From Phycisphaeraceae bacterium (GTDB taxonomy: Bacteria; Planctomycetota; Phycisphaerae; Phycisphaerales; Phycisphaeraceae), in the NCBI GenBank assembly GCA_963674705.1, contig OY771506.1, positions 3,552,001-3,616,000 of the forward strand: 64,000 nt of DNA, in the 5' to 3' direction. Position numbers and translations under genes: made by a program. Numbering within the stretch: position 1 is the first letter of the stretch; each line of letters starts with the position of its first letter. Under the pieces are notes generated by a model, which worked only from the letters and a program-made list of their open reading frames with translations, was not told the DNA's origin and did not search any database. This document shows, piece after piece, positions 10,589-58,945 of the stretch.

Positions 10589-10839
10589 AGCTAGGCTGGC
10601 TCCAAGGGTGCTGAACCCTGCCCGGGAAATTCGGAGCGCCAGCTATGAGAGGCCCGGACAGGGGTTATCAGCGTCAAATTTTAATTAGTGGGGCTGGCGG
10701 CTCCATCTAATCCCATCTTAGCGCAAGTCTAAATTTTGGATCGTCGTCTCGCTTGGGCAAAAGGGCGCTAGCGGGCCAGAAACAAGGATATACAAATAGG
10801 CCTAAAAAATATTTAACTGTAAGGGGCCTGACCCGGGCA

Positions 10840-10917
10840 TAGGGTGTTCGCATAGGGTAGACATGTAGGGTGTTCGCATGGGATGAACAGGTAGGGTGTT
10901 CGCATGGGGTAGACAAC
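10840..10917. repeat. three 26-bp-period direct repeats (iteron-like)
   Basis: TAGGGTGTTCGCAT at 10840, 10866 and 10892. Confidence 0.85.
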
Positions 10918-12101: not shown

Positions 12102-12173
12102 CCGTCTCTCGTATCGTAGTGTTATCCGTAACGTTGAAGCAGTGACTCCTCAGCGCGCCCTGGAGGGCTTCTG

Positions 12174-19606: not shown

Positions 19607-19748
19607 AGTGTTGGAGCCAACGCAGTGCTAGATCGGCTCCGGCACCGGATGACTGGATAAAGGGCAGGCGCTCAGGCGGCAGGCCCGTTAACAAGTAAGC
19701 CGATGTGGTTCACCACCTTAGGGTGCGGAACCACATCGGCTTTTTTTT
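19607..19748 (+). ncRNA. structured leader/attenuator RNA, copy 1
   Basis: Conserved in four copies; covarying stems; terminator GCCGATGTGG..CCACATCGGC-T8. Confidence 0.8.
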
Positions 19749-19841
19749 GTCGATTTTCCTGACCGTTCAGGATGCCCACTAAGCAAACAATCTCTTGGAT
19801 GGGCGGCGTAAATGACATTTGAACACTTTAAGGGATAGACC

Positions 19842-20120
19842 ATGACCACGAAGAGCACACTGGATATCAGCCCATTGGGTACCGACAGCCGCTGGGAACA
19901 TATCGGGGAGAATCAGGGCTGCGCCAATCACGATCACGACCTCGTGCACGAATTGAGCCGCAGGCTGGATTCAGTCTGGCGATATGACCAGTTCATCGCT
20001 AACGCGGAAGGTCGTGAAGCACTTCAGGCCTGCTGGCGTGAATTCAAGGAACAGGATATGCGGAGCATCGTGCGGTTGAAGGAGATTTTGAAGGATGAGA
20101 TCAAGAATGGCTGCTTCTAA
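19842..20120 (+). CDS. small helical hypothetical protein, possibly ferritin-like
   Basis: DHDLVHELSRRLDSVWRYDQFIANA; RBS AAGGGA. Confidence 0.7.
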   Translation: MTTKSTLDISPLGTDSRWEHIGENQGCANHDHDLVHELSRRLDSVWRYDQFIANAEGREALQACWREFKEQDMRSIVRLKEILKDEIKNGCF

Positions 20121-20161
20121 AAGACGCATACCGATCTTTGCGACGATCGAAGAAGGATCTA

Positions 20162-20581
20162 ATGAATGAGAACCAACTAACGATGGCACAACAGGTGGCT
20201 CGTGCGGCCAGCGCTTACCAGTTGCGACGAACCGGACATGCCCCGAAAGCGGTGTCGGTCGTCCTGAGTGAAGGAACGCTGGTAATCACGCTTCACGGTG
20301 CTCTTACGCCGGCAGAACAGGCCTTGGCCATGAACCCCGAAGGCGCCGCACAGGTGCAGGATTTTCACCGCCAGCTCTTCGCCAACTCCTCGGATTCGCT
20401 CAGGCAGGAGATCAAGCGTATCACCGGGGTGGATGTGCGGGAAGCGGCATCGGAAGTCGAAACTTCCACCGGGACCGTGGTACACGCCTTTACCAGCGGC
20501 ACGATGGTCCAGGTGTTCCTGATGGCTGAAAACCTGACCGCGGAAACATGGAACGAAACTGTGGACATTAGGCAACCCTGA
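20162..20581 (+). CDS. DUF2294 (MpsC-family) protein
   Basis: RTGHAPKAVSVVL...LHGALTPAE...IKRITGVDV pattern. Confidence 0.8.
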   Translation: MNENQLTMAQQVARAASAYQLRRTGHAPKAVSVVLSEGTLVITLHGALTPAEQALAMNPEGAAQVQDFHRQLFANSSDSLRQEIKRITGVDVREAASEVETSTGTVVHAFTSGTMVQVFLMAENLTAETWNETVDIRQP

Positions 20582-25815: not shown

Positions 25816-26112
25816 ATGTTGGTGTTATCCCGAAGAAGCCATGAATCGGTGATGGTCGAAAACCCTGACGGTTCGGGTTCCACACTCAAAGTCACAGTAT
25901 TAAGGTCCAGGGATGGCGAGGTCACACTGGGCTTTGAAAGCCCGGTCCGACTCGCCATTATCCGAAAGGAGGACTGGAACCGGATCCGTAACAATGTCCT
26001 GGAAAACTATCCATCCAATTTCCCTCGTCGCAAGAAATTACGGACAACGGTCCGCCGCGACGTTCAAAGCGACCGCCTCTTGTACAAATCATATACATCG
26101 AAAGGAAACTGA
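25816..26112 (+). CDS. csrA: carbon storage regulator CsrA-like protein
   Basis: MLVLSRRSHESVMV...VTLGFESPVRLAIIRKE. Confidence 0.8.
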   Translation: MLVLSRRSHESVMVENPDGSGSTLKVTVLRSRDGEVTLGFESPVRLAIIRKEDWNRIRNNVLENYPSNFPRRKKLRTTVRRDVQSDRLLYKSYTSKGN

Positions 26113-29578: not shown

Positions 29579-29722
29579 AGTCAAGGAGTCAATATTTTAC
29601 ACGTATACGACTCCAACTTCGGATGACTAGCTAAGGGGCAGGTCGCAAACGGCGACAGGCCCGTTGAAGAGTAAGCCGATGTGGTTCAGCACTAAAGGTG
29701 CCGTGCCACGTCGGCTTTTTTT
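29579..29722 (+). ncRNA. structured leader/attenuator RNA, copy 2 (most divergent)
   Basis: GGAGTC/GACTCC; CGGATGACTAG; GGGCAGGTCGC..GCGACAGGCCC; terminator followed by T7. Confidence 0.8.
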
Positions 29723-29743
29723 GTTTCGCTGATTTAGTCAGCA

Positions 29744-29989: not shown

Positions 29990-30637
29990 ATGAACAAAGA
30001 TAATCATCCCAAATCAACTAACACCGTTACTCAGATCAACACGAATGCGTCTTCGCAGAAAGCTCTGGACGGTTGGGCGACCGACGGTGGAACAATGAAA
30101 CGGATTAAGACAGCCGGTCGACCTTCTGGTACGACGCACACGATCAATCCCGCTGTTCTTAAATCACTAAACAAGCAGATCCAGCACGAGCAGTGCAACG
30201 CACACACCTATCAGGCCGTGTCTTTGTACTTCGGGAGCATCAATCTTCATGGGATTGCGGCATTTATGGAGCATCAGGCCGAAGAGGAAAGGCAACATGC
30301 GTGGAAGCTCATCCGGCATGCAGTTGACCGAAAGGCGCAGGTGGAGCTCGGGTCTATACCAGCTCCTGATGTGGACTACGCTTCACCCTTGGAAGCGGCT
30401 GTATCAGTTGCGGAACTTGAGCGAACCACGTCACAGATGATCAATCAACTATGTCAACTGGCCCGTGACGAGGGCGACTATGCCTTGGAGGTCCTGCTTC
30501 ATTGGTATATCACAGAGCAGGTTGAAGAGGAGAAGTGGTCACAGGAGTTGGTGGAACTTATTGAGAGACTTCAGGACAGGCCCGGTTCGCTATACATGTT
30601 AGACGACGTATGGGGCAAACGCCTCATAGAAAAATAA
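29990..30637 (+). CDS. ftn: non-heme ferritin with N-terminal extension
   Basis: LNKQIQHE, QAEEERQHA, WYITEQVEEE ferroxidase residues. Confidence 0.9.
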   Translation: MNKDNHPKSTNTVTQINTNASSQKALDGWATDGGTMKRIKTAGRPSGTTHTINPAVLKSLNKQIQHEQCNAHTYQAVSLYFGSINLHGIAAFMEHQAEEERQHAWKLIRHAVDRKAQVELGSIPAPDVDYASPLEAAVSVAELERTTSQMINQLCQLARDEGDYALEVLLHWYITEQVEEEKWSQELVELIERLQDRPGSLYMLDDVWGKRLIEK

Positions 30638-33577: not shown

Positions 33578-33900
33578 ATATCGACCCGGGATGCCTGGTT
33601 TTACTTGCTTTCCTAATTTAACGGTCTATGGTGTAGGCAGTGTTGGAGCCAACGCAATGCTAGATCGGCTCCGGTACCGGATGACTGGATAAAGGGCAGG
33701 CCGCTCAGGCGGCAGGCCCGTTAACAAGTAAGCCGATGTGGTTCACCACCTTAAGGTGCGGAACCACATCGGCTTTTTTTGTCGATTTTCCTGACCGTTC
33801 AGGTGCCCACCAAGAAACAACACTCTTAGGCGGGCGGTGTAAACCACGTTCGAACACTTTAAGGAATAGACCATGACCACGCAGAGCACATCGAATATCA
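33578..33900 (+). repeat. second copy of the ~324-bp promoter-leader-start cassette
   Basis: Matches 19546-19869. Confidence 0.9.
33639..33780 (+). ncRNA. structured leader/attenuator RNA, copy 3
   Basis: Promoter TTGCTT(33605)-N16-TATGGT; same helices; terminator followed by T7. Confidence 0.8.
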
Positions 33901-34432: not shown

Positions 34433-34873
34433 ATGCTTCCCACGTTACTGACCAAACGACCCTATTTTAACGATCCAACCGACTTCCTCCGCCATGAAAT
34501 AGGACGGTTCTTCGGGCCGGTCGTCAGTGAGGGGGGCGAGGCCCGTCCCGACCTGGTTGGCGCCTACCCCGTCGATATCCGTGAGATGGACGACGTGATC
34601 GTTGTAGAGGCCGAGGTGCCCGGCTTCGATAAGAATGAGATCCAGGTCAGCCTCGAACGCGGCATGCTTACCATCACGGGCGAGCGCAAGGCCGAGGAGT
34701 CCAAAGGCGAGAAATACCTGACCGAAAGGCGTTACCTGCGTGTTCAACGACGCTTCCAACTCCCCGCGACCGTCTATGAGTCAAAAGTGGATGCGACGTT
34801 GAAGAACGGCGTACTGACGCTCGTGCTTCAGAAGACGACCGAGGCTAAGCCCAAACTCATCGCGATCAAGTGA
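34433..34873 (+). CDS. Hsp20/alpha-crystallin small heat shock protein
   Basis: YPVDIRE, EVPG, LTITGER, ATLKNGVLTL. Confidence 0.92.
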   Translation: MLPTLLTKRPYFNDPTDFLRHEIGRFFGPVVSEGGEARPDLVGAYPVDIREMDDVIVVEAEVPGFDKNEIQVSLERGMLTITGERKAEESKGEKYLTERRYLRVQRRFQLPATVYESKVDATLKNGVLTLVLQKTTEAKPKLIAIK

Positions 34874-43958: not shown

Positions 43959-44960
43959 GTGGTCGCTAGTGACACAAAAACTATCGTATCGCATCTTGAG
44001 GTGCTTGCTGGTTTACAGGATTCTGTTGCCGAGAACCTCTCTATCCTTGGCGATATCGGGAAGCTGTGGCAGCCAACCGATTTCTTGCCAGATCTAACTC
44101 GGGATGACTGGCAAGAGCAGTTGCACGGATTCCGTGAATCTGCAAAGACAGTGTCGGACGAGTTGTTGGTCGTTCTCGTCGGTGACATGGTCACCGAAGA
44201 GGCGCTGCCCAACTATGCTGTTTCACTCAACCAAATAGCATGTGATGACGAGGGCGACTCGCCCAAACCTTGGGCGAAATGGCTTCGCGGCTGGACCGCC
44301 GAGGAAAACCGCCACGGCGACTTGCTAAACGCCTATCTTCGGCTCACGGGCCGGGTCAATATGAGATCGGTTGAGGTCACCGTCCAGCACCTGATAAATA
44401 ACGGCTTTAATTCACGCTCCCGAAACGATCCTTACAGTGGACTGATCTACACATCTTTTCAGGAAAGAGCTACAAAAGTCTCTCACCGCAACGTCGGGCG
44501 GATTGTCAATTCACAAGGAGAGTCTAACCTTGCAAAGATTTGTCTTCGCATCGCTGGCGACGAGGCCCGCCACGAACTCTTCTACACCCGCATGATGGAT
44601 CGCGTGCTCGATATCGACCCACAGGGCGGCATGATCGCGATAGGTAAATTGATCCGTGGCATGATCGCCATGCCCGGAAAACAGATGTTTGATGGTAAAG
44701 ATCCGGATCTCTTTGATCATTTTTCGATCGTAGCACAGCGATCAGGCGTCTACACCGTCCACGATTATGCTGACATACTCGACCATTTGGTTACGCGCTG
44801 GGACATCGCCGGTCGCCCCGTATCCGGCAAGGCAGCGATAGCACAGGAATACCTGTGTCGCCAAGCTGAAACGTACCATAACAAGGCTGAGCAGTATGAG
44901 CACCACATCAACCAAAAGCCAAGGATACGCTTCAGTTGGATCCATGATCGTGAAGCATGA
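43959..44960 (+). CDS. acyl-ACP desaturase (soluble, di-iron)
   Basis: WQPTDFLP, TEEALPNY, WTAEENRHG, DEARH. Confidence 0.92.
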   Translation: MVASDTKTIVSHLEVLAGLQDSVAENLSILGDIGKLWQPTDFLPDLTRDDWQEQLHGFRESAKTVSDELLVVLVGDMVTEEALPNYAVSLNQIACDDEGDSPKPWAKWLRGWTAEENRHGDLLNAYLRLTGRVNMRSVEVTVQHLINNGFNSRSRNDPYSGLIYTSFQERATKVSHRNVGRIVNSQGESNLAKICLRIAGDEARHELFYTRMMDRVLDIDPQGGMIAIGKLIRGMIAMPGKQMFDGKDPDLFDHFSIVAQRSGVYTVHDYADILDHLVTRWDIAGRPVSGKAAIAQEYLCRQAETYHNKAEQYEHHINQKPRIRFSWIHDREA

Positions 44961-45304
44961 ATACACGGCGAATAAGTAGGAAGCCCTACAAACTAAGCTT
45001 CAGCAATCAAATTGTACCCAAAACCGCAAACTTCGCCCTCGGCGTTTTGGATCTGTCAGACATAGATGTTTGGGGACAAAGACGGGTTCGACAAAGTCGA
45101 ATCCAGACCATTCAAGCAGCCTCGTAAGGATTTTATAGTCATATTCCTTTATAATGCTCTACGTTCGAATCTCATCACACGCTTTGATAAAGCCCTCCTG
45201 GCTAACAGGTTGCGGAGGGCTTGTTCATTGGTTTTTGTACTCTCTTCGATGTGAAATGTCGGGGATGAAATGGAACGACATATCCAGAAAAAGAACGTCA
45301 ACAA

Positions 45305-46363
45305 TTACGCGGTCCGCCGCGCCGCACGATAGGTCACCAACTCGCCGCGCTCCGTGTCCCACAGGTTGAGGCGCAGGCACTTGAAAATGTCATGCGGCAG
45401 CAGCGTCGTCGTCCGAGGCAGTTGAAGCTCGGGCACCACCGCCATCGCCTCCGGAAGGCGATAGAACGGAATCAGCGGATTCAGGTGATGCACATGGTGA
45501 TAGCCAATGTTACCCGTGAACCAGTGCATGACCCGGCCGAGGTCCATGAAACTCGATGACTCGATCGACCCGCGGTAATACGTCCACTCTTGAGGCTCCA
45601 GCACGTGAAGCCCTTCATAGTTGTGCTGCGCGTAGAACAGATACGCGCCTATGGCGGTAGACACGCCGTACGGCAGCAGAAAACTGTAAAGCAGCACGTC
45701 GAAACCGAACAGCAGCCACAGCCCCGCCAACAGTGAGCCGTGCAGGAGGATCGCCACCGCGCCGTCCCAGTAGCGCTTCGGTCGCTTCAGCAGAGGCAGC
45801 AACGTAATGCTGAACACGAACACCGTCAGGTATGCCAGAAGCAGTGTCATCGGGTGTCGAGCCAGCCGATAATGAAAGCGTTCCCACAACGTCGCGTTCT
45901 TCCACTTCTCGACGGTCATCAGCGGAAACGAGCCGAGGTCGGACGTGAACAGCAGTTCATCACCATCCTCGGACTCAACCGGCTTGCCAACGTTGCCGTG
46001 GTGGAAGTTATGGCTGAAGCGCCAGTAGCGCGGCGGCGTCAGCATCAGCATGCCGAAGATGTGAAATATGGGCCGGGCAACACGTGAACTCCGCAATAGC
46101 GAACGGTGCATGAAGTCGTGATACAAAATGAACGCGCGCACCAACAGTAGCGACCCGATCAGCGACAGTCCCAAACGCACCGGCCACCAGACGGTCATAC
46201 CAGCCATCACCAGCGCCGCGAGCACCAGCGTCAGTGTCGAGATCACCACCCACCAGCTTCGCACAGGCGATTCTATGGCGAAACTGTGTGTTTGCTTGAG
46301 CACTTCCCTGCCCGACTTTTCACCTACGAGCTCAGCGTTGGGCATCAATTCGCCTTTATGCAT
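45305..46363 (-). CDS. membrane fatty acid desaturase
   Basis: His boxes HDFMH, HNFHH, HHVHH. Confidence 0.9.
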   Translation of the reverse strand: MHKGELMPNAELVGEKSGREVLKQTHSFAIESPVRSWWVVISTLTLVLAALVMAGMTVWWPVRLGLSLIGSLLLVRAFILYHDFMHRSLLRSSRVARPIFHIFGMLMLTPPRYWRFSHNFHHGNVGKPVESEDGDELLFTSDLGSFPLMTVEKWKNATLWERFHYRLARHPMTLLLAYLTVFVFSITLLPLLKRPKRYWDGAVAILLHGSLLAGLWLLFGFDVLLYSFLLPYGVSTAIGAYLFYAQHNYEGLHVLEPQEWTYYRGSIESSSFMDLGRVMHWFTGNIGYHHVHHLNPLIPFYRLPEAMAVVPELQLPRTTTLLPHDIFKCLRLNLWDTERGELVTYRAARRTA

Positions 46364-46835
46364 GCCGGTCGGTCGTTCCGGCTACTATCAAATCTCACGG
46401 CTCGCAAATGATTCTAAACATAAATCGCGGTGCGGAAAAGTACATCGTGCCGTAAAACTCGCAGCATTTAGCAAGCCCACCGCCGTCAAAACGTTGGTTG
46501 GCATGCAGCAGGCAGCGACTGCACCTACGTCGGCCGGATACCAGGGCTGACCTGCCTCGTGCCGAAAATCATTGAGGCGACCCTTCGTGGTGACGAGTCC
46601 GACGGGATCAGCATGGACAAGCTGCGGAAGGACCTGCCGGTGATGTGGGATGATTAGAGGAGGGGTTACGGGCGACAGACGGACGCGAAGTTTGATTCCA
46701 GGCGAGCCGACCTTAGGGCCTTGGGGGTCGAGGGGTTAACTGATAGACTGAATGTTTGGAAACTTGATTCTATGTGTGCCGGCGTCGGGGCCTTGGTATG
46801 TGAGGGTTTCGCATGGGTCAGCACAAGGATAGCCA

Positions 46836-48359
46836 GTGGATGAAGACAGACGACGAACTGAACCCATCGATCGATGGGAGGATGAAGGCGGCGCGTTAAC
46901 GGGCAGCGCATCCGGCCAATCGAGTACGCAGCACCACATTGAAACGCGTTCGCAGCATCAGCCCACTGATGAACGAGGCGAGGCAGACGGGGCGACGTTG
47001 AAGCGTCAGCCGGATGATAATCTCCCTGCTGAAATGGCCGACTGGGTCACGAAACCCCTTGCGAGCTTCTTCAAAGTCGAGGTCGCCGCAGCCGTCATGC
47101 TGATCATCGCAACCGCTGCGGCCTTGGTGCTGTCGAATTCAGGCTGGGCCGCGCCGTTCGCAGCGTTCTGGGAGACTCCGGTCGGCCTGAGCTTCGGTGA
47201 CTTCGAGTTCTCTCGATCGCTTCGTCACTGGATCAACGACGGGTTCCTGACACTGTTCTTCTTTGTTGTCGCCCTTGAGCTCAAGCGCGAGATTGTCCTG
47301 GGCGAATTGCGCAACATGCGCACCGCGGCACTCTCCTTCGCCGGCGCGCTTGGGGGGATTGTTGTGCCTGCGGTCGTGTATCTTCTGCTCATGATTGGTG
47401 AGCCGGGCGTGAACGGCTGGGGGACCGTGACTGCCACGTCGGCAGCGTTCGTCGTGGGCTCGCTTGCGTTGCTGGGTTCGCGCATTCCGCCGGCACTCCG
47501 ACTCTTTCTGTTGTCGATCGCGATCTTCGACGACATCGGGGCGATCCTGGTGGTGGCGATCGGTTACGGGGAAGCGGTGCAGTGGAGCACACTTGCGGCC
47601 GCCGCGCTCGGCGTGCTCGTCCTTGCGGGGGCAGCGCGCGTCGGCATCAGGAGCATCCCGGTGTACTTCGTGCTCGGCATTACAATCTGGCTCTGTTTCG
47701 ACGCATCGGGTATCCATCCAACGCTGACAGGTATCGCGATGGGTCTCATGACGCCGACGCATCGATGGGTCTCGAACATTCGCATGCGCGCCATCCTCGG
47801 TCGCGTGCTTTCTCATCCACACGGCGAACACGCCGGTGGCGATACGATCGAGCGGCGGGATCTGCGGCAAGCCAGTAGAGCAGCGAGGGAATCGTCATCT
47901 CCAGTGGAGCGCCTGGAGTTCATCCTCCATCCTTGGGTAGGCTTTGTGATTCTGCCCATCTTTGCCTTCGCCAACGCCGGTGTGGCACTCTCCGGTGCAG
48001 ACCTGAAACAACCAATCTGTATTGCGATCCTGGCGGCCTTTGTACTGGGCAAACCGGCTGGCGTGCTCAGCGCGAGTTGGCTGGCTGTGCGTATCGGACT
48101 CGCCACACGCCCGCCGGGGCTGACCTGGCCGCTCATCGCAGGCGGTGGCCTGTTGACTGGGATCGGCTTCATTATGGCGCTGTTCATCGCCGGATTGGCT
48201 TTTAACCCCGAACAGTTTGACGACGCCAAGATTGCAATTCTCTTATCGTCCGTCATCTCTGCTGTGGCCGGCATCGCGGTGCTATTCTGGTTGACATCCA
48301 GCAAACGCAATGCGCAACAAAGCCAGGAAAAACTGGAATCGGTCGGGATTCGCAGCTGA
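46836..48359 (+). CDS. nhaA: Na+/H+ antiporter NhaA
   Basis: WINDG, LELKRE, AIFDDIGA, SGIHPT, FAFANAGV, GKPAG, GIGFIMALFI. Confidence 0.92.
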   Translation: MDEDRRRTEPIDRWEDEGGALTGSASGQSSTQHHIETRSQHQPTDERGEADGATLKRQPDDNLPAEMADWVTKPLASFFKVEVAAAVMLIIATAAALVLSNSGWAAPFAAFWETPVGLSFGDFEFSRSLRHWINDGFLTLFFFVVALELKREIVLGELRNMRTAALSFAGALGGIVVPAVVYLLLMIGEPGVNGWGTVTATSAAFVVGSLALLGSRIPPALRLFLLSIAIFDDIGAILVVAIGYGEAVQWSTLAAAALGVLVLAGAARVGIRSIPVYFVLGITIWLCFDASGIHPTLTGIAMGLMTPTHRWVSNIRMRAILGRVLSHPHGEHAGGDTIERRDLRQASRAARESSSPVERLEFILHPWVGFVILPIFAFANAGVALSGADLKQPICIAILAAFVLGKPAGVLSASWLAVRIGLATRPPGLTWPLIAGGGLLTGIGFIMALFIAGLAFNPEQFDDAKIAILLSSVISAVAGIAVLFWLTSSKRNAQQSQEKLESVGIRS

Positions 48360-48364
48360 GGCAG

Positions 48365-49069
48365 TTACGGAGCGGGGGAAGCGGGCTGATCGACGTCGAG
48401 GAAGCGGTCGTCGCCAGCGATATCCCAGACGAATCGCCAGTGTAGGAGCGCGCCGATGAGTACCGCGATGTGCCAGATCTCGTGCGCGTGGATCATGCGC
48501 GGGATCAGGATAACCCAGCCCTTATACTCCATGAACGCGCCTACGGTATAGGCGAGCCCACCGTAGAGGATCGGCAGCAGATAACGGAAGCCGTACCGGC
48601 CCAAGATCGGGATTGCGGTGAGGGCGACCGACCAGCCCAGGCCGAGGTAGAACGAGAGCCCCAGCCACTCCGGCAGCACATCGAGGAAAACGACCTTGAG
48701 CGTGATGCATGCAGCGGCGACGATCCACATAATGATAAGCGGCACCCATCGAAACCAGCCGTTAAACATAATGCCATGCACCGCGGTGAAGGTGCCCGCG
48801 ATCAGAAGGAAGATGGCACCGTGATCGAGGCGCTCCATAACGCGGTACGTCGTCCCGCCGACCTCGAACATATGATACAGCGTGCTGGAGATGAACAGGA
48901 CAATGCAGGCGGCGGAGTAGATGATGAGGAACGCCATCGATGCGCGGTGCGCATGGCCGCGCCGCAGCAGCTTCCACCCGAGGAAGATGAACAGCAGGGC
49001 CGCGAGCAGATGGCTGATCGCGTTGAAGGGCTGGTAGAAGCCGGGGAGATGGTAGAGTTCGGGTGGCAT
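48365..49069 (-). CDS. hemolysin III / PAQR family membrane protein
   Basis: NAISH, STLYH, LDHGAIFLLIAGT, HEIWH. Confidence 0.9.
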   Translation of the reverse strand: MPPELYHLPGFYQPFNAISHLLAALLFIFLGWKLLRRGHAHRASMAFLIIYSAACIVLFISSTLYHMFEVGGTTYRVMERLDHGAIFLLIAGTFTAVHGIMFNGWFRWVPLIIMWIVAAACITLKVVFLDVLPEWLGLSFYLGLGWSVALTAIPILGRYGFRYLLPILYGGLAYTVGAFMEYKGWVILIPRMIHAHEIWHIAVLIGALLHWRFVWDIAGDDRFLDVDQPASPAP

Positions 49070-49146
49070 GGCGTGACGATAAATTGATAGATGCTATCCG
49101 TCGCTAATCTACTAAGGGGCGTGAACAGTTACAGGAATCTTACTAT

Positions 49147-51495
49147 TCATGTACAGGGCAGCGGGTGTTCCGCGTATCTCATCTCGGCCAGCGAAAGGTG
49201 GAATGCGAGCGACGACTCTGCGCCTTGGTTTTGATTGACGCGGTCGGGGTGCAGTCCGTCGCCACAACCGCCGGTGGTGGAGTCATAGATCGGCAGGCCG
49301 AGGTCATTGCGGCCCAGGAACCAGTCGAAGGCACGCCTTGCCTCGCGTGACCAGGCCGGGTCTTGTGTCATGCGGAAAGCTTCGAGGCACGCGGAAACCA
49401 TGGCCTGCGCCTCGACCGGCTGCTGATCGAAGTCGGCACGGGTGCCGCCACGGGTATAGAAACCGTTGCTGCCGATCGGCCTGAAATGCCCCGCCTGCGT
49501 GGTTTGAAGTGATGCAAGCCAGCGCAGTGATTTCAGCGCGACTTCACGGGCTTGGGGACTTGGCATCCACTGGCCGCTGAGTAGCAGGGCTTGGCAGATC
49601 CGCGCGTTGTCATAGGTGATGTTGGTTTCAAACCACGCCCAGTCATCCGTGGCGCATTGTTCCCATCGTGTCAACAATCGGTCCGTGAGAAAAACGCGTG
49701 CCTCTTTCACCGCAGCGACATCCGGATACTCGCGCAGATATTCATGGATGCCAAGCAATGTGAACGCCCAGCTACGCGGCGAAGAGAAACATTCTACAAC
49801 CGTAAGGCCGCACTCAAAAAGTTGAACGGACAGCCTGCGCCTGCCCTCGTTGCGTGAACGCCCCGCGCCGGTGCCCAACGCCCAGAGCGCACGCCCGTGG
49901 CTGTCCTCACTACCTACTTCCTCCAGCCAGCGCCGCCCGTGGCTCATGAAGTTGCGAAAACGTCCCGTGTCGCGATTCAAAGCGGCCGCGAGGAACGCGA
50001 GATAGCTGGTCGCCAGACCTTCGAGGTCATCGCCTTTTGGCTTGCCGCTCAGATCATCCAATAGATTGCACAGGATGAAGGCCCTGGCGTTATCGTCCGT
50101 GCAGTAGCCATGGCTGAAATCGGGCACGTTATAGATCGCGTGTTGGAAAATACCCGTCCCGTCACTCATGCGTACGATGTGATCCAGTCGCGACAGGGGC
50201 AACTCGTGAGGACGGCTGGCAAGTGTCCAGTTGGCGAAAGCCGTGCGCGGGGCGCTCTCGCGGTCAGAACACGCGTGCTGAAACGACTCGAGATATCGCT
50301 TCGCCACCGCGGGCCATAGCATGTCCCGCCCGAGCCGGTAGGCCGTCTGGCGTGTCTTTGCCATGCGCTGCGGATCATCAAGGAACTCACATACGGCCTT
50401 GGCGATGGCCCCCGGGTCGCTAAAGGGCACCAAGATGCCGCGTCCGTCCGCCAGCAATTCCTGCGCGTGCCAATACGGCGTGGAGACCACCGCCTTGCCC
50501 GCACCAAACACGTAGGCCAAGGTGCCAGAGGTGATCTGCGCCTCATTGAGGTAGGGCGTCAGATAGATATCCGTCGCGCCGATGAATTGAATCAAATCAT
50601 CAAGCGATACAAAGCCGTTAAAAAAAATAACATGCTCGCGCACGCCTCGATCCTCGGCGAGTCGTTCCAGACTCAATCGGTAGCTCTCTCCTTCGCGCGC
50701 CACCAAGTGGGGATGAGTCGCGCCTAAAACAAGGTAAACAACATTCGGATGCGTTCGCACGATTTCGGGAAGCGCCTCGATCACGTGCTGGATACCCTTG
50801 CCCGGCCCCAGCAGTCCGAAGGTCAGCAGCACCACACGGTCCTCAACCCCGAACTGCGCTTTGGAATCGCTCGGGTCGGTAAAGGGGATCTCCGGGATGC
50901 CGTGCGGGATGACATCTACCTTGGCCTGTCGCACGGCGTATGTTTCGCAGAGAATCTCCAGCCCCTTCTGAGCCATCACCACCAGGCGGTCGCTGCGCTG
51001 CCCCAATTCATCCATCACCTTGCGTTGTGCGGTGTTCGGATCGTGGAGGATGGTGTGCAGGGTCGTCACGACCGGCATCCGCACTTCTTTGAGTAGTGCC
51101 AGCAGGTGACTTCCCGCCGGCCCGCCGTAGATACCAAACTCGTGCTGGACGCAGAGCACCTCCGCGTTGTTGAAGTTCAAATAATCCGCGGCGCGACGGT
51201 AGGAGGCCAGCTCCTTCTCAACGATCTCAAACCCCACGCGTGAAGAATACGCGTACCCTTCCGGCCGGTCATTGACCACAACCGCGTAGCATTGCGCCGA
51301 CGGGGTCCACGCGCTGACAGCCTCGCAAAGATCATGCGTGAACGTCGCAATCCCGCAGAGTCGAGGTAGATAGCCGCCCAGAAACGCGATGCGCTTGGGC
51401 GTGGTGGGAGGGCTCGGTGTTATCCGTTCCATGGGACATTTCTGCCAGCACATCATTCGGGCCTGCATCGGCCCGGGGCTGACTGGGTGCGTCAT
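49147..51495 (-). CDS. GT4 glycosyltransferase fused to a C-terminal (alpha/alpha)6-like domain; likely start at 51432
   Basis: PRLCGIATFT, QHEFGIYGG, SGTLAY, GYCTDDNARA, FDQQPVEA, NQGAES. Confidence 0.88.
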   Translation of the reverse strand: MTHPVSPGPMQARMMCWQKCPMERITPSPPTTPKRIAFLGGYLPRLCGIATFTHDLCEAVSAWTPSAQCYAVVVNDRPEGYAYSSRVGFEIVEKELASYRRAADYLNFNNAEVLCVQHEFGIYGGPAGSHLLALLKEVRMPVVTTLHTILHDPNTAQRKVMDELGQRSDRLVVMAQKGLEILCETYAVRQAKVDVIPHGIPEIPFTDPSDSKAQFGVEDRVVLLTFGLLGPGKGIQHVIEALPEIVRTHPNVVYLVLGATHPHLVAREGESYRLSLERLAEDRGVREHVIFFNGFVSLDDLIQFIGATDIYLTPYLNEAQITSGTLAYVFGAGKAVVSTPYWHAQELLADGRGILVPFSDPGAIAKAVCEFLDDPQRMAKTRQTAYRLGRDMLWPAVAKRYLESFQHACSDRESAPRTAFANWTLASRPHELPLSRLDHIVRMSDGTGIFQHAIYNVPDFSHGYCTDDNARAFILCNLLDDLSGKPKGDDLEGLATSYLAFLAAALNRDTGRFRNFMSHGRRWLEEVGSEDSHGRALWALGTGAGRSRNEGRRRLSVQLFECGLTVVECFSSPRSWAFTLLGIHEYLREYPDVAAVKEARVFLTDRLLTRWEQCATDDWAWFETNITYDNARICQALLLSGQWMPSPQAREVALKSLRWLASLQTTQAGHFRPIGSNGFYTRGGTRADFDQQPVEAQAMVSACLEAFRMTQDPAWSREARRAFDWFLGRNDLGLPIYDSTTGGCGDGLHPDRVNQNQGAESSLAFHLSLAEMRYAEHPLPCT

Positions 51496-51652: not shown

Positions 51653-52211
51653 TGCCCCCCTCTGGTTCTTTGATCCAGTTGCTATGAGAGAATCGGTGAG
51701 TATGTAGATGCTTGCTGAGCCGTAGGGAGGGGCGCAGCCCCGACCGGAGGTTCAGGTGCGCTGGGCATGGATGAGTAACAATGGGGTGCAAGTCCCCAGC
51801 GGGGCCTGGCCCCCCAAACGGCCACGCACCTTCTCCACCGTGCGACGCCGCCGCTCGGGGTCTACAAGTTTGGGCGGGAGGCTTCCCGAAGGATCTGGAT
51901 GTCCAACGCCTGGTCCGCCACCAGCTTCTTCAGCCGCGTGTTCTCCTTCTCCATCTCCTTCATCTGCTTGGCCATCACCGGGTCCATCCCACCATACTTC
52001 GTCCGCCACCGGTAGTACGTCTGCTCGCTGATGCCCAGCTGCCTGCAGACCTCCGGCACCTTCAGTCCCTTGCCCAGCTCAATATCCGCCTGGCGGAGCT
52101 TGGCCACGATCTGCTCGGCGCTGTGTCGCTTCTTCATCGAGGAATCCTTTCCGGCCCGAGGCCGGCTGGATTCTCTCATATTCCCTGGATCAGGTTTTTA
52201 GGAGGGGGTCA
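51653..52211 (-). mobile_element. internally deleted IS3-family element (orfA intact at 51862-52137; orfB mostly lost)
   Basis: Imperfect terminal IRs TG.CCCCC...TGATCCAG...TATGAGAGAATC at both ends; OrfA MKKRHSAEQIVAKLRQAD...TYYRWR. Confidence 0.85.
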
Positions 52212-52685: not shown

Positions 52686-52906
52686 GATGTCCGGCCACCA
52701 TATGTATATGTGCATGTTGTTGGTTTGGATCGATCGCGGGGCGGATGAGGACTGGGGACAGATGTGCTAATGGGGCTTCTCACACACGTTCTAACAAATT
52801 ACGACCGCATCTCTGCTTCTCTGCTCATGGGGGCGAATCTATCCGAAATCTAACGGGATTGCCCGATGTCGCTTGCGTTCCCAAATTTACCTGCTAGAGT
52901 GCAGGC

Positions 52907-53050
52907 GTTATCGGAGTAGAACTCAGTAACATAGCTGCTCCGGCATCGGATGACTAGGTAAGGGGCAGGTCGCAAGAGCGGCAGGCCCGTTGACAAGTAA
53001 GCCGATGTGGTTCACTACCTTAGGGTGTGGAACCACATCGGCTTTTTTTT
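52907..53050 (+). ncRNA. structured leader/attenuator RNA, copy 4
   Basis: Promoter TTGCGT(52873)-N16-TAGAGT; GGAGTAG/CTGCTCC; conserved core; terminator followed by T8. Confidence 0.8.
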
Positions 53051-53073
53051 GTTGATTTCCTTGGCCGCTCAGG

Positions 53074-53117
53074 GGTAGCGGGGACTGGGTTCGAACCAGC
53101 GGCCGCCGGGTATGAGC
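53074..53117 (-). pseudogene. degenerate 3' half of a tRNA-Met (initiator-like)
   Basis: Minus strand: GCTCATACCCGGCGGCC-GCTGG-TTCGAAC-CCAGT-CCCCGCTACC. Confidence 0.65.
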
Positions 53118-53225
53118 GATTATCTAGAGGAAAGCCTAATGAAGACCCTGTCAGACTTGAATGATAAGACAATTGCAGATCTCTGAAATGTCGATTGGTT
53201 TTACCCACAGAAAAGGAAAACGACA

Positions 53226-53777
53226 ATGATTCATAAACTACTTGCGTGCCTCCTGACAACAACGCTGGCTGTTCCCGTATTCGCCCAGACCCAGCGCAAC
53301 AACACGACGGTCAACAATTGGGGACCGGAGGCGGGCGATTGGGAGTTCTCACTAGGCGGCGGGGGCACCAACGACAAGAACTTCGATAACGGCGGGTTTA
53401 ATGTGGATGCGGAACTGGGTAAGTACCTCACCGATGATTTCGCGGTCGCCGTGCGCCAGTCATGGAACTATACCGAAGTGAGCGGAGATTCCGTGTGGTC
53501 AGCCACCAGCCGCGTTGCGATTGATTACTACATCCCGCTGTTCGACGACCACCTGCGCCCCTTCATCGGGGCCAACCTCGGCTACGTTTACGGTGAAAAC
53601 GTCGATGACACTTGGGCCGCCGGTCCCGAAGCAGGTGTCAAGTGGTACGTGAAGGATGAGACCTTCATCTACGGCCGGGCCGAGTACCAGTTTCTTTTCG
53701 AGGACGGAGACGACGCGAGCGATAACTTCGACGACGGCATCTGGCTGTACACCGTCGGTATCGGCTTCAACTTCTGA
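53226..53777 (+). CDS. outer membrane beta-barrel protein
   Basis: Signal peptide; alternating aromatic strands; C-terminal GIGFNF. Confidence 0.85.
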   Translation: MIHKLLACLLTTTLAVPVFAQTQRNNTTVNNWGPEAGDWEFSLGGGGTNDKNFDNGGFNVDAELGKYLTDDFAVAVRQSWNYTEVSGDSVWSATSRVAIDYYIPLFDDHLRPFIGANLGYVYGENVDDTWAAGPEAGVKWYVKDETFIYGRAEYQFLFEDGDDASDNFDDGIWLYTVGIGFNF

Positions 53778-54139
53778 GTAGCCCCAGCGCGGGGTAGAGC
53801 AAATGACGGTCGAAGGTCCCATGCAATGCTTAACGACCAATTAAAGGCCCAAAGATGCTCCGCCCCGCATATGTTTACATTCACATGACCGGCAACCAAG
53901 TTCGTTCCAGATCCATGAGCAAGCCCATCTGATTATTCCGGGGGCAGGTGACGAACGCCGCTTGTACTATGCTAAGGGCTTGCTATGGATTTTTTATTCC
54001 ATCCATAAATCGCGACGTGATGCGGCCACGAATGCCTGATCTGCATGTTGTGTTTTGTAACCCGCAACGGCGCAGCGTGCTACGGAAATATATTTTTAAT
54101 CCAACGTCAGTTACCCGACAAATCGGCCCACCTCCGAGA

Positions 54140-54320
54140 ATGGTCCGCGTCAGTTCGGATACACGTCGCCTGAGGTGCCTTCCAGGTAAACATTGCCACT
54201 ACAGCCGGGTCGCCGTGACCGGGACCTGCGATATAAAACATATCGATGTCATACTTCTTGAAGGCCGCGGCGCTGGGAAACGTGATGCGGCTGAGTCGGG
54301 TTGTGCCCATACGCCCCTGT
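54140..54320 (-). pseudogene. phosphoketolase (xfp) remnant
   Basis: KKYDIDMFYIAGPGHGDPAVVA, then a frameshift to VYLEGT..DVYP. Confidence 0.65.
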
Positions 54321-54415
54321 TGGATTAGGCAAGAACCTGCTTCAGCGCGGCATGGTGTGACTCACGGCCTGACCCCGCCCCGGGCTCATTCGTACGCCGA
54401 TCGGGGACGGCTGCT

Positions 54416-57400
54416 ATGATGATCTATGGAGCGGGTCACCCGCTGTGGCGGTTTCGCAGCGCGAAAGGGAATAGGTGTATCACGGACAAATCATTTCCCA
54501 TTGTGGGGATTGGCGCATCAGCCGGCGGGCTGGATGCGATGACCGCACTCTTTGACGCGGGGCCTTCGCTTGCGGGCATGGCGTTCATCATCGTGCAGCA
54601 CCTGGACCCGAAGGGCGATAGCCATCTCGTTGATCTGCTCTCGCGACATACATCGCTGAAGGTACGGTCGGCGGAGGACGGGCTGACGATCAAGCCGAAC
54701 CATGTGTACGTATGCATTCCCAATCGCGACCTGGTCGTGAAGGACGGCTATCTACGACTGCTAGAAACCGATGCGGAACGCAGTCAGCGCCGGCCGATCG
54801 ATCGACTGTATGACTCGATGGCGTCGGCGTACGGCGACCACGCGATTGCGATGATTCTGTCGGGCACGGCGTCGGATGGGTCTCGCGGCATCTCAGCGAT
54901 CAAGTCCGCAGGCGGTATGGTAATGGTACAGGATCCGGAGACGGCAGAGTACGACGGCATGCCGCGTAATGCGATCAGCACCGCGCTGGTGGATCTGGTG
55001 CTGCCGATCGAGCAGATGCCGGAGGTGTTGCAACGGCTGGCGGCGCATCCGAGTGATGATAGCCTTGCGGTCGATGACAAGGAGCACGGTGGCGGGGAAT
55101 CGGATGGTATGCGCGCGTCATTGCACAGCATCCTGAGCGTGCTGCACGATCAGTTTGATTACGACTTTGCGGATTACAAGCAGCCAACGCTGCTGCGGCG
55201 CACGCAGCGGCGGATGAGCCTGCGGAACGTCGATGACATCGATGCGTATACGAAACTGGTGCGCGAGGATGAGAAGGAAGCCGCATCGCTGTATCGCGAT
55301 CTGATGATCAACGTGTCGAGTTTCTTCCGCGATCCGAAGGCGTGGGAGGAACTGGAGAAGCAGGTCATCGAACCGCTGGTGGCCCGACGCGAGAGCGGCG
55401 ATGAGATTCGGGTCTGGTCGGCAGGATGCGCGACAGGTGAGGAAGCGTACACGATCGGCATGGTGCTGCTGGAGAAGATTGAACTGTCGGGCAAGCGCAT
55501 CAGGCCGCAGATCTTCGCGACGGATGTCTCGGACAGTCTCGACGTCGCGCGGGTGGGGGTGTATCCGGAGACGATCGAAGCGCAGCTCTCGCAGGAGCGG
55601 CTGGCGAAGTTTTTCATCAAGCGCGAATCGACGTATGAAGTGAAGAAGCACCTGCGCGACCTGATTGTCTTTGCGCGGCATAACGTGATCAGCGATCCGC
55701 CGTTCTCGCGGATGGACATGATCATCTGCCGCAACCTGCTGATTTACATCGAGCCGGACACGCAGCGGAAGATTCTGGGGATGTTCAACTTCGCGCTGCG
55801 CGACGGCGGGTCGCTTTTCCTGGGCAGCGCGGAGACGATCGGCATGTGGGGGGAACTGTTCGAGCCGATCTCGGCACCCTGCCGCATCTTCCGATCGCGG
55901 CGGGTTGTTCATGCAGGACGGTTTGATTTTCCGAGGTTCTCGGTGACGGATCAGCGGCGCGGGGCGCTGGGCCAGACGAGGAGTCACCGGCCGTTGCGTG
56001 ATGAGTATCTGACGATGGCGCATCGCGCGCTGCTGGACCGGTACGCCCCGCCTTCGGTGGTGATCGACGCGGACCATCAGGTGCTGGTGTACCACGGCGA
56101 TACATCACGGTATCTGGGGCAGCCTGGCGGTGAGCCGACGCGCGATCTGCTGGCGCTTGTTTCGCCGGGCCTGAGGCCGCCGCTGCGTCATGCGATCCAC
56201 GATGCGGGCAGTGAGCGGCGATCGGCGACGACCGTGAATGCGTCCATCAAGGATGGCGAGTCACGCCGGCCGGTGAGGCTGACCGTCAGCCCGATCGGTC
56301 AGCCGCGCGATGAATCGCCGCTGTTGCTGGTGAGCTTTGAAGAGCCGGCGGAAACGGCGGATGGCGTTGCGCGTGAATCAGAGGACAGCGACAGTCGCGG
56401 CCAGACGGGCCAGACGGTCGATCAACTTGAAGAGGAATTACGCCTGACGCGGCAGGACCTGCGCGATGTCTCGGAGCAGTATGACCGGCTGGTCGAGGAG
56501 TACAGCACGTCCAACGAAGAGATGCTCTCGATCAACGAGGAACTGCAATCCGCGAACGAAGAACTGGAAACGTCGAAGGAAGAGTTGCAGTCATTGAATG
56601 AGGAACTCAACACGCTCAACAATGAACTACGCAGCAAGATTGAAGTGGTCGAGCAGACGAACAACGATTTGAACAATCTTCTGGTCAGCACCGAGGTGGC
56701 GACGCTGTTCCTCGACACATCCTACCGCATTCGCTGGTTCACCCCGGCGATCAAGGACGTGTTGCGGCTCATACCATCGGATGTTGGCCGGCCTATCAGC
56801 GATCTTGCGTCGATAGTGACGGGTTCGGACCTTGAACTGGCAGCGAAGGCGGTGCTGAAGACCCTTGTCCCGGATGAAACCGAAGTCAATAGCGAACAGG
56901 AACAGTCGTATATTCGGCGTGTACTTCCCTATCGCACGACGGACAACCGCATCGACGGTATCGTGGTGACATTCGTTGACATCACCGAGCACAAGAGGGG
57001 CGAGCGGCAGCGCGAGCGGCTGATGCATGAGTTGAGTCACCGCATCAAGAACACGCTGGCCACGGTGCAGGCGATCGTGCAAGGTGTGGGTCGACAGTGC
57101 AAGACTCTGCCGGAGTTCCTTGCCGCGTTCGAGCCGCGTCTGGCTGCGTTGGCCCGCGCGCATTCGCTCCTGACATCGCCCGGCGATGATCGCATTGAAC
57201 TAAGGCACGTACTCAAGCGGGAACTCACGCCGTATATCGATGACGATTCCGACCGCGTCATCATCGAGGGCGATGACATCGCGCTCAATCGTGAGCCAGC
57301 CATCGCGCTGGAACTGGTATTCCACGAAATGGTCACCAATGCCGTCAAGTATGGTTCCCTGTCCAACGAGACGGGGACCATCACCATTCGCTGGAATCGC

Positions 57401-57664
57401 ACGAAGAACGAGAGCGGCGAGCATGCACACATCGAGTGGGTCGAGTCGGGAGGCCCACCGATTGAATCCAAAGGCAATTCCGGCTTCGGCTCGCTGTTGA
57501 TCGAGAGCAGCATCGCCCACGATCTTGCGGGCACGATACACATGCAATTCAAGCCGGACGGGCTGCACTGCATGATATACTTTCCCCTCACGAAAGGGCA
57601 GGACAATGGCACCCACGAGAAGGTCGACAAAGTCGACACGGGCAGCGCTGCGGGAATCGAGTGA
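54416..57664 (+). CDS. CheB methylesterase-CheR methyltransferase-PAS-HWE histidine kinase hybrid
   Basis: GASAGG, VQHL, SGTASDG; WSAGCATGEE, CRNLLIY; coiled coil; ELSHRIKNTL, HEMVTNAVKYG, WVESGGP. Confidence 0.92.
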   Translation: MMIYGAGHPLWRFRSAKGNRCITDKSFPIVGIGASAGGLDAMTALFDAGPSLAGMAFIIVQHLDPKGDSHLVDLLSRHTSLKVRSAEDGLTIKPNHVYVCIPNRDLVVKDGYLRLLETDAERSQRRPIDRLYDSMASAYGDHAIAMILSGTASDGSRGISAIKSAGGMVMVQDPETAEYDGMPRNAISTALVDLVLPIEQMPEVLQRLAAHPSDDSLAVDDKEHGGGESDGMRASLHSILSVLHDQFDYDFADYKQPTLLRRTQRRMSLRNVDDIDAYTKLVREDEKEAASLYRDLMINVSSFFRDPKAWEELEKQVIEPLVARRESGDEIRVWSAGCATGEEAYTIGMVLLEKIELSGKRIRPQIFATDVSDSLDVARVGVYPETIEAQLSQERLAKFFIKRESTYEVKKHLRDLIVFARHNVISDPPFSRMDMIICRNLLIYIEPDTQRKILGMFNFALRDGGSLFLGSAETIGMWGELFEPISAPCRIFRSRRVVHAGRFDFPRFSVTDQRRGALGQTRSHRPLRDEYLTMAHRALLDRYAPPSVVIDADHQVLVYHGDTSRYLGQPGGEPTRDLLALVSPGLRPPLRHAIHDAGSERRSATTVNASIKDGESRRPVRLTVSPIGQPRDESPLLLVSFEEPAETADGVARESEDSDSRGQTGQTVDQLEEELRLTRQDLRDVSEQYDRLVEEYSTSNEEMLSINEELQSANEELETSKEELQSLNEELNTLNNELRSKIEVVEQTNNDLNNLLVSTEVATLFLDTSYRIRWFTPAIKDVLRLIPSDVGRPISDLASIVTGSDLELAAKAVLKTLVPDETEVNSEQEQSYIRRVLPYRTTDNRIDGIVVTFVDITEHKRGERQRERLMHELSHRIKNTLATVQAIVQGVGRQCKTLPEFLAAFEPRLAALARAHSLLTSPGDDRIELRHVLKRELTPYIDDDSDRVIIEGDDIALNREPAIALELVFHEMVTNAVKYGSLSNETGTITIRWNRTKNESGEHAHIEWVESGGPPIESKGNSGFGSLLIESSIAHDLAGTIHMQFKPDGLHCMIYFPLTKGQDNGTHEKVDKVDTGSAAGIE

Positions 57665-58487
57665 AACTGAATGCGATCGGTTGCTTGCCGGCCTGAGCAT
57701 TCTGATTGTCGAAGATATCGGCATGGTCGCCAGCGCCCTGAAAACCATGCTCGAAGAGCTTGGCTGCACCGTCGTCGGTATCGCGTCGCGTGTTGCCGAG
57801 GCGGAGAGGTTAGCGCGTCATGAACAGATCAACGGTGTGCTGCTCGATCTGAACCTCGGCGGAGAGTATTCGTTCGCCGTCACCGATATCCTGCATGAAC
57901 GAAACATCCCATTCATCATCATGTCCGGCTACGATGTGGAGCACCTGTGTCCGAAACTCGCCGATGAACCGCAGATGCCAAAGCCCTTCGACCGCGAGCC
58001 CCTGGAGGAGATGCTTCTGACGGTGTTCTGTGGTCAGAACCGTCGTAAAAAGCGCGCTGACGCCGGGTCGGCAAGTACGATCGGGCCGCACAAACCCCCG
58101 ATGAAGACGCGGGGCGAGCTCGAAAGCGCTATCTGCCTCGGCATGACACGCTTCGAGCAGGAGTACATGGGCCGCGGTCCGGCAGATGTGCAGGCACATC
58201 TCCTCAATGATTTTCTCATCATCCGCATGAAGTGCTTGATGACCGTCGCCGAGCAGCGCCTCGTGGAAAACTCGTCGCCGGAGAAGGGCCGCGATCTAGT
58301 CAAGAAACTGCGGACGCAGATGATGGAAGGTGCCCGCAAGCAGATCGACTCGATGATCCAGATCATCACCGGCGTGAGGGTACGATCACTGCATCACGAC
58401 ATCAGCACTCGCACGGGTGAGAAAGTCGTGATCTTCAGCCTCAGCGAAGAACCGACCTACCGGGAAACGAATCTGAGAGACCGCTAG
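57606..58487 (+). CDS. response regulator: REC domain fused to DUF2294 (MpsC family)
   Basis: ILIVED, LLDLNL, MSGY, KPF; then KTRGELESAI...FEQEYMGRGP...LHHDISTRTGEKVVIFSL. Confidence 0.85.
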   Translation: MAPTRRSTKSTRAALRESSETECDRLLAGLSILIVEDIGMVASALKTMLEELGCTVVGIASRVAEAERLARHEQINGVLLDLNLGGEYSFAVTDILHERNIPFIIMSGYDVEHLCPKLADEPQMPKPFDREPLEEMLLTVFCGQNRRKKRADAGSASTIGPHKPPMKTRGELESAICLGMTRFEQEYMGRGPADVQAHLLNDFLIIRMKCLMTVAEQRLVENSSPEKGRDLVKKLRTQMMEGARKQIDSMIQIITGVRVRSLHHDISTRTGEKVVIFSLSEEPTYRETNLRDR

Positions 58488-58585
58488 AGCATCCCCAATC
58501 CAATCGTAGCGCCTGTTGGGCACCCGTTAGGTTGCGCTCTTGAGTGTGTGGTTGTAACTTGGTTTCCGCATGAATCTCTTCGGTA

Positions 58586-58945
58586 ATGCCGCTGCTCTTC
58601 AGATTATCGACAACGTCGCCATCGTCTTGGGACACGGCCGAACGCGGCACCTCGGCAAATCCGTATGCGGTGTCCGCGGTGGCCCGCAGCTACGACGGCC
58701 TTAACCGGATGACACGTGAGAGCCAGAGCATCCGCGAGGGCACCACCCGGAATGTGGATTACGCCTACGACAAGTCGGCCAACGTGCTGACGCTGACGTA
58801 CCCGGGCGGCACGGTGATCGCGACCAGCTATGACGCGCTGCACCGCGGGGATGTGGTGAAGAAGGATGCCAGCCAGATCGCCGACTACGACTACGTCGGC
58901 CCCCGGAATACGTCGTTAGTTCTGGAGGCGGGGCCAACGACGTGA
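58586..58945 (+). pseudogene. RHS/YD-repeat fragment
   Basis: SYDGLNRMT, YAYDKSANVLTLTYPGG, SYDALHR. Confidence 0.7.

Follow-up and report, generated by a model that had tools for sequence, protein, structure and literature searches.

The 64,000-nt stretch analysed here (the window: GenBank assembly GCA_963674705.1 of a Phycisphaeraceae bacterium, contig OY771506.1, positions 3,552,001 to 3,616,000) contains at positions 54416-58487 two genes for a candidate two-component system, and elsewhere four copies of a 118-nt leader RNA element that occurs six times in the genome (Table 1). The first gene encodes a histidine kinase with the Pfam domain order CheB_methylest-CheR-PAS_10-HWE_HK, and the second a regulator in which a receiver (REC) domain (Response_reg, residues 32-135) is fused to an MpsC domain (DUF2294, PF10057, residues 168-280). 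An earlier note, made from the sequence alone, had proposed the pair as a candidate ANTAR-like antitermination system acting on the leader RNA. The comparative evidence below argues that the leader is a transcription attenuator and that its partners are MpsC proteins of one type (A type), to which the REC-MpsC fusion belongs. We put the probability that A-type MpsC antiterminates a default-off leader, with the HWE kinase feeding in through Asp-81 of the receiver, at about 0.55, and at that or a little less for the full version in which the fusion is controlled by phosphorylation.

The HWE_HK profile (PF07536) matches the kinase at 82 bits, and the histidine, the N-box glutamate and the WxE motif of the HWE domain could all be located, as could the catalytic motifs of the CheB and CheR domains; the start codon is uncertain, with alignments of homologues beginning at about residue 25. 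The kinase gene overlaps that of the fusion by 59 nt and the receiver is intact, both as the earlier note had it, with Glu-36, Asp-37, Asp-81, Ser-107 and Lys-126 marking a phosphorylatable receiver. Across 71 aligned homologues of the fusion the aspartate at position 81 is invariant (71/71), and Ser-107 and Lys-126 are each kept in 70. The MpsC domain scores 109 bits against PF10057, for which the cut-off is 23. Both Pfam domains are present in 77 of the 120 homologues among the matches listed, so the REC-MpsC fusion is a family; the named organisms among these double-domain proteins are Phycisphaerae or unclassified. The kinase-fusion pair recurs in four other genomes, with kinase identities of 77% in G057 and 71% in G559, and in G063 and G011 with the kinase upstream of the fusion followed only as far as the contigs extend. 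Separate REC-MpsC fusions with other receivers occur in P0086 and in G208, where the fusion lies behind another protein of 1673 residues with an N-terminal CheB-like motif (recognized by eye). All five other genomes found with a REC fusion contain leaders of class I, the form described next.

The leader alignment comprises 146 copies, a few near-duplicates and two long-insert copies having been excluded; also set aside was a match in L120 (Eubacteriales), which has no terminator and which we take to be a chance pattern match. The pattern scan of GTDB genomes matched at least 134 stretches, nearly all from Planctomycetota by record title. Over the 146 copies the 5' part forms one long, irregular, unbranched hairpin of ∼57 nt with a variable apical loop, built from a basal CGG/CCG, a purine-rich loop (AUG/AAG), ACU/AGU and further stems that show compensatory substitutions. 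The basal strand AAGCCG doubles as the 5' arm of a long terminator with a U run after it, making antiterminator hairpin and terminator mutually exclusive. Both folds outscore all 500 shuffles in the percentage of paired positions and in covariation score, with a sharp drop when they are slid. The terminator is present in the minimum free energy fold of 143 of the 146 copies and the basal hairpin in all 146 truncated transcripts, the median energy gap being 7.5 kcal/mol. Because the terminator is favored in the full-length fold, the leader is, on these predictions, a default-off transcription attenuator that needs help for read-through, which bears out the attenuator-like character ascribed to it earlier. 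The pseudo-symmetric CAGG/CAGG site of the earlier note fared less well: CAGG stands on both sides in only 6 of the 146 copies, where it is a local variant of the tandem A-G loop, and we rejected it as a conserved site. The likely site is GGAUGACU/AGUAAGCC. Rfam 15 gave no family at gathering threshold in the window and only a chance microRNA match for leader copy 4 at expectation values (E) up to 10, and on 20 related loci it reported fstAT and tRNAs only.

Co-occurrence of the leader and DUF2294 had been set beforehand as a test of their connection, and they were found to go together by presence and absence across genomes, starting from the RNA and starting from the protein. In the genome under study, all five MpsC matches lie within the two regions that carry the six leaders. 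Among 60 relatives, six have both, one MpsC only, two the RNA only and 51 neither; five of the six with both had supplied training sequences found beside mpsC, so that the informative figure is the absence of the RNA from 51 of the 53 MpsC-negative genomes. A strict pattern occurs in 5 of 48 MpsC-positive and 0 of 352 MpsC-negative genomes of Planctomycetota, the pattern being insensitive, with G559, G708 and G715 having the RNA by profile but not by pattern. Starting from the RNA, MpsC lies in the available flank of 32 of 69 places, and of 20 of 40 where the locus spans at least 9 kb. Starting from the protein, the loci compared were metagenomic ones carrying close relatives (74-81% identity) of the stand-alone A-type gene of this genome; of the 43 with 1 kb or more of upstream sequence, 39 have the RNA divergently within 1 kb. 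A model search of 150 genomes, in which 24 candidates per genome were scored, returned three matches, all in MpsC-positive genomes, and missed 10 further MpsC-positive genomes. We regard functional coupling of MpsC and leader as highly probable, and the association across genomes suggests that MpsC binds RNA and permits read-through. Thus, of the proposal that DUF2294 is an RNA-binding antiterminator, the part that makes it a trans-acting partner of the leader is upheld by genomic association; direct binding, the antitermination direction and phosphotransfer from the overlapping kinase are what we infer beyond it. Direct antitermination by A-type MpsC we consider probable, the central inference being well supported by comparison of sequences. 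Three AT-rich planctomycete loci (L328, L332 and L340) have several leaders near one or two mpsC genes, with partial repeats of the 5' core.

MpsC was found in 93 of 301 genomes of a Bacillota-centred sample and in 48 of 400 Planctomycetota, and its domains are of two types. The A-type motifs, traced across Planctomycetota and Bacillota, are G-R-G-P, Lys-233, Arg-236, Arg-244 and H-D-I-S-T; Arg-190, Lys-233, Arg-236 and Arg-244 are kept across phyla, and the fusion retains every invariant A-type position. The B type forms a long separate branch, is more acidic, is transcribed behind leaders and is without the A-type motifs and conserved basic residues in the two alignments inspected. A-type genes sit divergent from or upstream of the leader, beyond its control, which is the position expected of a regulator; the stand-alone A-type gene of the genome (G000:C1:2014350-2014688) is divergent from a leader. 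The earlier note was right that a stand-alone DUF2294 gene is second behind leader copy 1, after a 92-residue open reading frame (ORF), and the protein belongs to the family as the fusion does (PF10057, 79 bits; cut-off 23), but the treatment of the two as equivalent does not stand, the copy-1 protein being of the divergent B type. A tree of 82 domains built with FastTree, whose labels and sampling lean on similarity, places the 12 fusions of the present family, the two separate fusions and 35 class-I-labelled stand-alone proteins in one clade with support of 1.0; the fusion clade within it is diverged (branch 0.19). The fusions seem from this tree to nest within the class-I-linked A clade and to have more than one origin. 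The AlphaFold model of the fusion (predicted local distance difference test, pLDDT, 88.5) gives an alpha/beta output domain with four strands, the predicted MpsC order being alpha-beta-beta-alpha-alpha-alpha-beta-beta. Fold searches (Foldseek, VIA) with the full fusion model returned receiver-domain matches only, a stand-alone MpsC model built without an alignment (pLDDT 62) gave meaningless fold matches, and a sequence search of the PDB found no relative of MpsC. A complex predicted between the B-type protein and the MpsC part of the fusion scored 0.01 and was used neither for nor against. Two frames of ∼250-265 residues with two MpsC matches each (G488:C11:114078-114737 and G381:C10:305140-305787) suggest tandem double-domain proteins.

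The receiver of the fusion is of the FATGUY type, defined by PFxF(A/S)(T/S)G(G/Y) at beta-4, a short alpha-4 and no beta-5 aromatic: it reads PFIIMSGY, with the second F of the motif replaced, Tyr-109 kept in 71/71 homologues and Gln at 123, and alpha-4 is four residues long in the AlphaFold model. Its best NCBIfam match is the PhyR receiver, also among the fold matches, and the linker to the MpsC domain is mostly 22-31 residues, flexible and of low confidence in the model. In Alphaproteobacteria, it is HWE kinases and FATGUY receivers that feed the general stress response (PMC5964349), a role that by analogy would fit the input side of the proposed module. FATGUY receivers most likely act without allosteric output (PMC9981736), so phosphorylation may not switch the MpsC domain, and the receiver may only shuttle phosphate. 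MpsC would then still read the leader, with the receiver shuttling or sinking phosphate for the HWE kinase, the stand-alone A-type protein running the regulon and the fused MpsC being constitutive or a handle for protein contacts. The motif, short helix, flexible linker and PhyR match all fit this scheme, as do the divergence of the fusion clade and the island of a related genome (G004) that is without the module; it accounts poorly for the retention of every invariant A-type residue in the fusion, for the separate fusions with other receivers and for the recurrence of the kinase-fusion pair in four other genomes, and we consider it unlikely, if worth keeping in view.

The RNA is also found beside a different set of genes. 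Planctomycetota genomes scored as having MpsC only mostly carry a second variant (class II) 45-260 nt behind mpsC, which reads GGCAGAY...RAUAGGCC followed by a terminator and precedes phosphoenolpyruvate (PEP) carboxykinase or DUF4914. In Bacillota it is the class-I core that stands behind mpsC, with 8 of 30 loci matching a strict expression that none of 640 shuffles matched; the planctomycete model matches 19 of the 30 at E up to 0.001, part of its score coming from the generic terminator, so that we rely on the stricter 8/30. A whole-genome search of Bacillota with the model missed both positives (G421 and G489) and matched one of eight MpsC-negative genomes, which makes it uninformative as a control. 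The genes next after the Bacillota leaders encode, among others, the SbtA bicarbonate transporter, PEP carboxylase, aminoimidazole ribonucleotide carboxylase, biotin carboxylase and NuoL-like subunits that we read as MpsA/DabB-like. Class-I targets in Planctomycetota are typical general-stress genes, and Bacillota variants precede CO2/bicarbonate genes. Among individual loci, an Anoxybacillus plasmid (NZ_CP015439.1, L281:8001-9497) compactly joins mpsC, a leader-terminator element and a sodium-dependent bicarbonate transporter, and a Staphylococcus pettenkoferi plasmid (NZ_CP066063.1, L282:2182-7357) has an insertion sequence-flanked mpsAB-orf-mpsC block, with a strong hairpin and U run just before mpsA in which no core motif was seen by eye. 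Behind a class-II leader in G071 (L187:580-2901), a divergent MpsC domain stands at the N terminus of a GTP-dependent PEP carboxykinase.

The inorganic-carbon genes of Bacillota and class II, which make up a coherent set, would also suit a riboswitch for a small ligand or ion (CO2/bicarbonate, pH or a stress metabolite) with MpsC as a co-inherited helper, a scheme in keeping with the on-switch geometry, the invariant purine-rich internal loop, the few genomes with the RNA and without MpsC, and the fact that B-type mpsC is itself a leader target. We think this quite improbable, given that the A-type gene is tightly linked yet divergent or upstream and not behind the leader, that the RNA is a single unbranched hairpin, and that the same core precedes two unrelated gene sets (stress and carbon), which a protein adaptor fits better than one ligand. 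The available part of a riboswitch review (PMC7266159) has nothing on a bicarbonate class.

Among protein-dependent systems, the layout resembles that of ANTAR and of BglG systems, and the present system is a member of neither. With ANTAR regulators (EutV/EutW, AmiR, NasT) it shares a receiver joined to a small output domain beside a kinase, a multi-copy regulon, and an antiterminator that overlaps the 5' arm of the terminator (PMC3369931). The ANTAR-like membership proposed in the earlier note nevertheless fails on both fold and RNA: the output domain of the fusion is the alpha/beta PF10057, where the ANTAR domain (PF03861) is helical and Pfam finds only Response_reg and MpsC, and the ANTAR target is two hexaloop mini-hairpins with A at position 1 and G at 4 (PMC3369931), where the leader is one long hairpin. 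Most members of the MpsC family are, moreover, stand-alone, and the targets are stress and carbon, not nitrogen, genes; an ANTAR search of the genome was uninformative, the control giving no match. With BglG/SacY/LicT and their RAT (ribonucleic antiterminator) the system shares an antiterminator of one stem-loop, in partial overlap with the terminator and dependent on a protein for its persistence (PMC12591593), and a regulator gene adjoining its target. It differs in that RAT is 30 nt against ∼57 nt for the leader hairpin, in the missing Rfam match and in having no PRD or PTS (phosphotransferase system) control; CAT_RBD (PF03123) was found in neither the fusion nor the genome by a search whose control matched in 4 of 14 genomes, and DUF2294, MpsC and YbcI are unmentioned in the available part of PMC12591593. 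The HWE/FATGUY modules (MrrA, SdrG, PhyR) also have an HWE kinase, a PFxxxSGY receiver and stress-type targets, but their receivers are single-domain hubs to a sigma-factor partner switch (PMC5964349), whereas in the present system MpsC is joined to the receiver and control appears to be exerted at termination. MpsC of Staphylococcus aureus mpsABC and YbcI of Bacillus subtilis belong to the same PF10057 and in Bacillota lie beside CO2/bicarbonate genes; they differ from the domain described here, which is fused to a receiver and tied to stress genes. No molecular function is described for S. aureus MpsC in the available part of PMC6689103, a term search of the available text of a 2026 B. subtilis preprint on an MpsAB-like transporter returned none of ybcI, mpsC, leader or terminator, and the literature covered, which did not extend to subscription journals and supplementary motif tables, holds no account of DUF2294/MpsC/YbcI as an RNA-binding protein or of the leader RNA.

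Divergent regulator and target genes are also typical of DNA-binding regulators. We regard as very unlikely the notion that MpsC binds DNA at a promoter, promotes termination or licenses another RNA-binding protein such as the regulon's CsrA, for which speak that layout, the CsrA genes behind leaders, the GGA with which class I starts and the want of a solved MpsC relative to indicate activity, since what is conserved is the pairing of the RNA, compensatory changes included, a factor that promotes termination would add little where the terminator is already the default, class II is without GGA, and no CAT_RBD protein was found in the genome by the search described above.

We return to antitermination by A-type MpsC. 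As proposed, the nascent leader folds as either antiterminator hairpin or terminator, with the terminator as default; A-type MpsC, including the receiver-fused form, would likely bind the GGAUGACU/AGUAAGCC hairpin and let RNA polymerase read through. The HWE kinase is predicted to pass a stress signal by way of Asp-81, the stand-alone A-type protein being the likely basic regulator and the kinase-REC-MpsC pair an optional input, and B-type MpsC behind leaders may give feedback.

Several observations weigh against this mechanism, in addition to the overlap with training sequences and the doubt over allosteric output given above. As a group, A-type domains are not basic: their median net charge is -1, with the fusion domain at +4. 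The basal stem never varies on both sides, so covariation is no proof of it, and the search pattern itself accounts in part for the core being invariant. The RNA occurs without detectable intact MpsC in G012 (83% complete) and in G054 (97% complete, with a degenerate core), and one deltaproteobacterial metagenome-assembled genome has the RNA with no intact MpsC found. The MpsC-negative Bacillota genome matched by the model did so at 35.6 bits, within the range of Bacillota leaders (G230:C5:19675-19783, an orphan leader or a generic terminator). The genomes counted are related, and the counts consequently overstate independence. Deletion of mpsC in S. aureus gives no growth phenotype (PMC6689103). 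Finally, G004, of the same genus and matching 25.0-37.4 kb of the window at 95-98.5% identity, has the stress island, three leaders and both A- and B-type genes without kinase or fusion; from this comparison the kinase-REC-MpsC module is an accessory, an optional extra input.

The fusion is the sole A-type MpsC domain within the island of the window, the stand-alone A-type gene lying 1.6 Mb distant in a related second island of the same genome (L021:10300-19000, G000:C1:2.014-2.023 Mb). There it is divergent from a leader, and the island also has two B-type genes, two leaders, a GroEL-like gene and pieces 64-95% identical to the island of the window. A promoter scan of 52700-58800 found no sigma-70-like site, and hexamer-like pairs ahead of leaders were spotted by eye only; the 640-nt gap before the kinase argues against assuming its co-transcription with copy 4. 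The module is flanked by a transposase fragment (Pfam, 51862-52179) and by two fragments that their motifs suggest to be phosphoketolase-like (54107-54310) and YD/RHS-like (58586-58945).

Table 1. Features of the leader RNA system in the window (positions in nt)
Feature	Position	Strand	Basis
Leader copy 1	19633..19749, core 19647-19702	+	
92-residue protein, no Pfam match, first gene behind copy 1	19842..20120	+	
Stand-alone MpsC, divergent B type, second gene behind copy 1 (ATG at 20162)	20138..20581	+	Pfam, tree
CsrA-family gene, same-strand stress run downstream of copy 1	25816..26112	+	Profile
Leader copy 2, before short ORF and ferritin	29607..29724, core 29621-29678	+	
Non-heme ferritin-like gene behind copy 2	29990..30637	+	Profile
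Leader copy 3, before 185-residue ORF, hsp20, groES/groEL-like ORFs	33665..33782, core 33679-33735	+	
Hsp20 behind copy 3	34433..34873	+	Profile
Leader copy 4, before beta-barrel gene, 1.4 kb upstream of kinase	52934..53051, antiterminator core 52948-53004, then terminator	+	
Outer-membrane beta-barrel protein, first gene behind copy 4	53226..53777	+	Pfam
CheB-CheR-PAS-HWE histidine kinase, 1082 residues	54416..57664	+	Pfam, motifs, 71-77% identity to G559/G057 homologues
REC-MpsC (DUF2294) regulator, 293 residues; FATGUY-like receiver and A-type MpsC domain	57606..58487	+	Pfam, alignments, model, tree

The stress run downstream of copy 1 also includes YflT, DUF5670, DUF2934, DUF3309, DUF3185 and an MscS-type channel. 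We scanned 98 candidate downstream proteins (84 from related loci and 14 from the window), about one-third of which gave no match; the named targets include ferritin/Dps, Hsp20, DnaK, YflT, DUF1328, DUF883, transglycosylase-associated, BON, fasciclin, PRC-barrel, Band 7 and KaiC proteins, glucose-6-phosphate dehydrogenase, GT4 glycosyltransferases, P-type ATPases and CsrA. This set behind the class-I leader we take to be general-stress genes. CsrA-family genes recur downstream of leaders (in the window, L023 and L033), often right after B-type mpsC, which hints at a second post-transcriptional layer. Positions 43959-51495 hold two desaturases, NhaA, an HlyIII-family protein and a GT4 glycosyltransferase fusion, and GT4 proteins with a similar start are the first genes behind leaders in L024, L072 and L094. 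At 8015-12671 lie an integrase-like gene and a replication-like ORF (9494-10588), both labelled by eye, together with three 26-nt tandem repeats (10840-10917); these may be the left part of a mobile element that has integrated and carries the stress island.

Taken more widely, and only tentatively, since we judge it somewhat short of an even chance, MpsC/DUF2294 would form a so far undescribed family of RNA-binding antiterminators that spans phyla and has an RNA element of its own, and whose ancestral role would be to gate genes of CO2/bicarbonate uptake and carboxylation. In Planctomycetota it would have been redeployed to a general-stress regulon controlled by antitermination, not by a sigma factor, with REC-MpsC as a second class of RNA-acting response regulator that wires in HWE kinases and the B type as a feedback inhibitor. 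If true, this would assign a role to a domain that is widespread but uncharacterized, enlarge the small set of bacterial antiterminators by a new protein family and its RNA element, and provide two-component systems with an RNA-acting output beside ANTAR. Two questions, how bacteria adjust their inorganic-carbon genes to the supply of CO2 and how planctomycetes control their general stress response, would thereby become testable with small purified parts.

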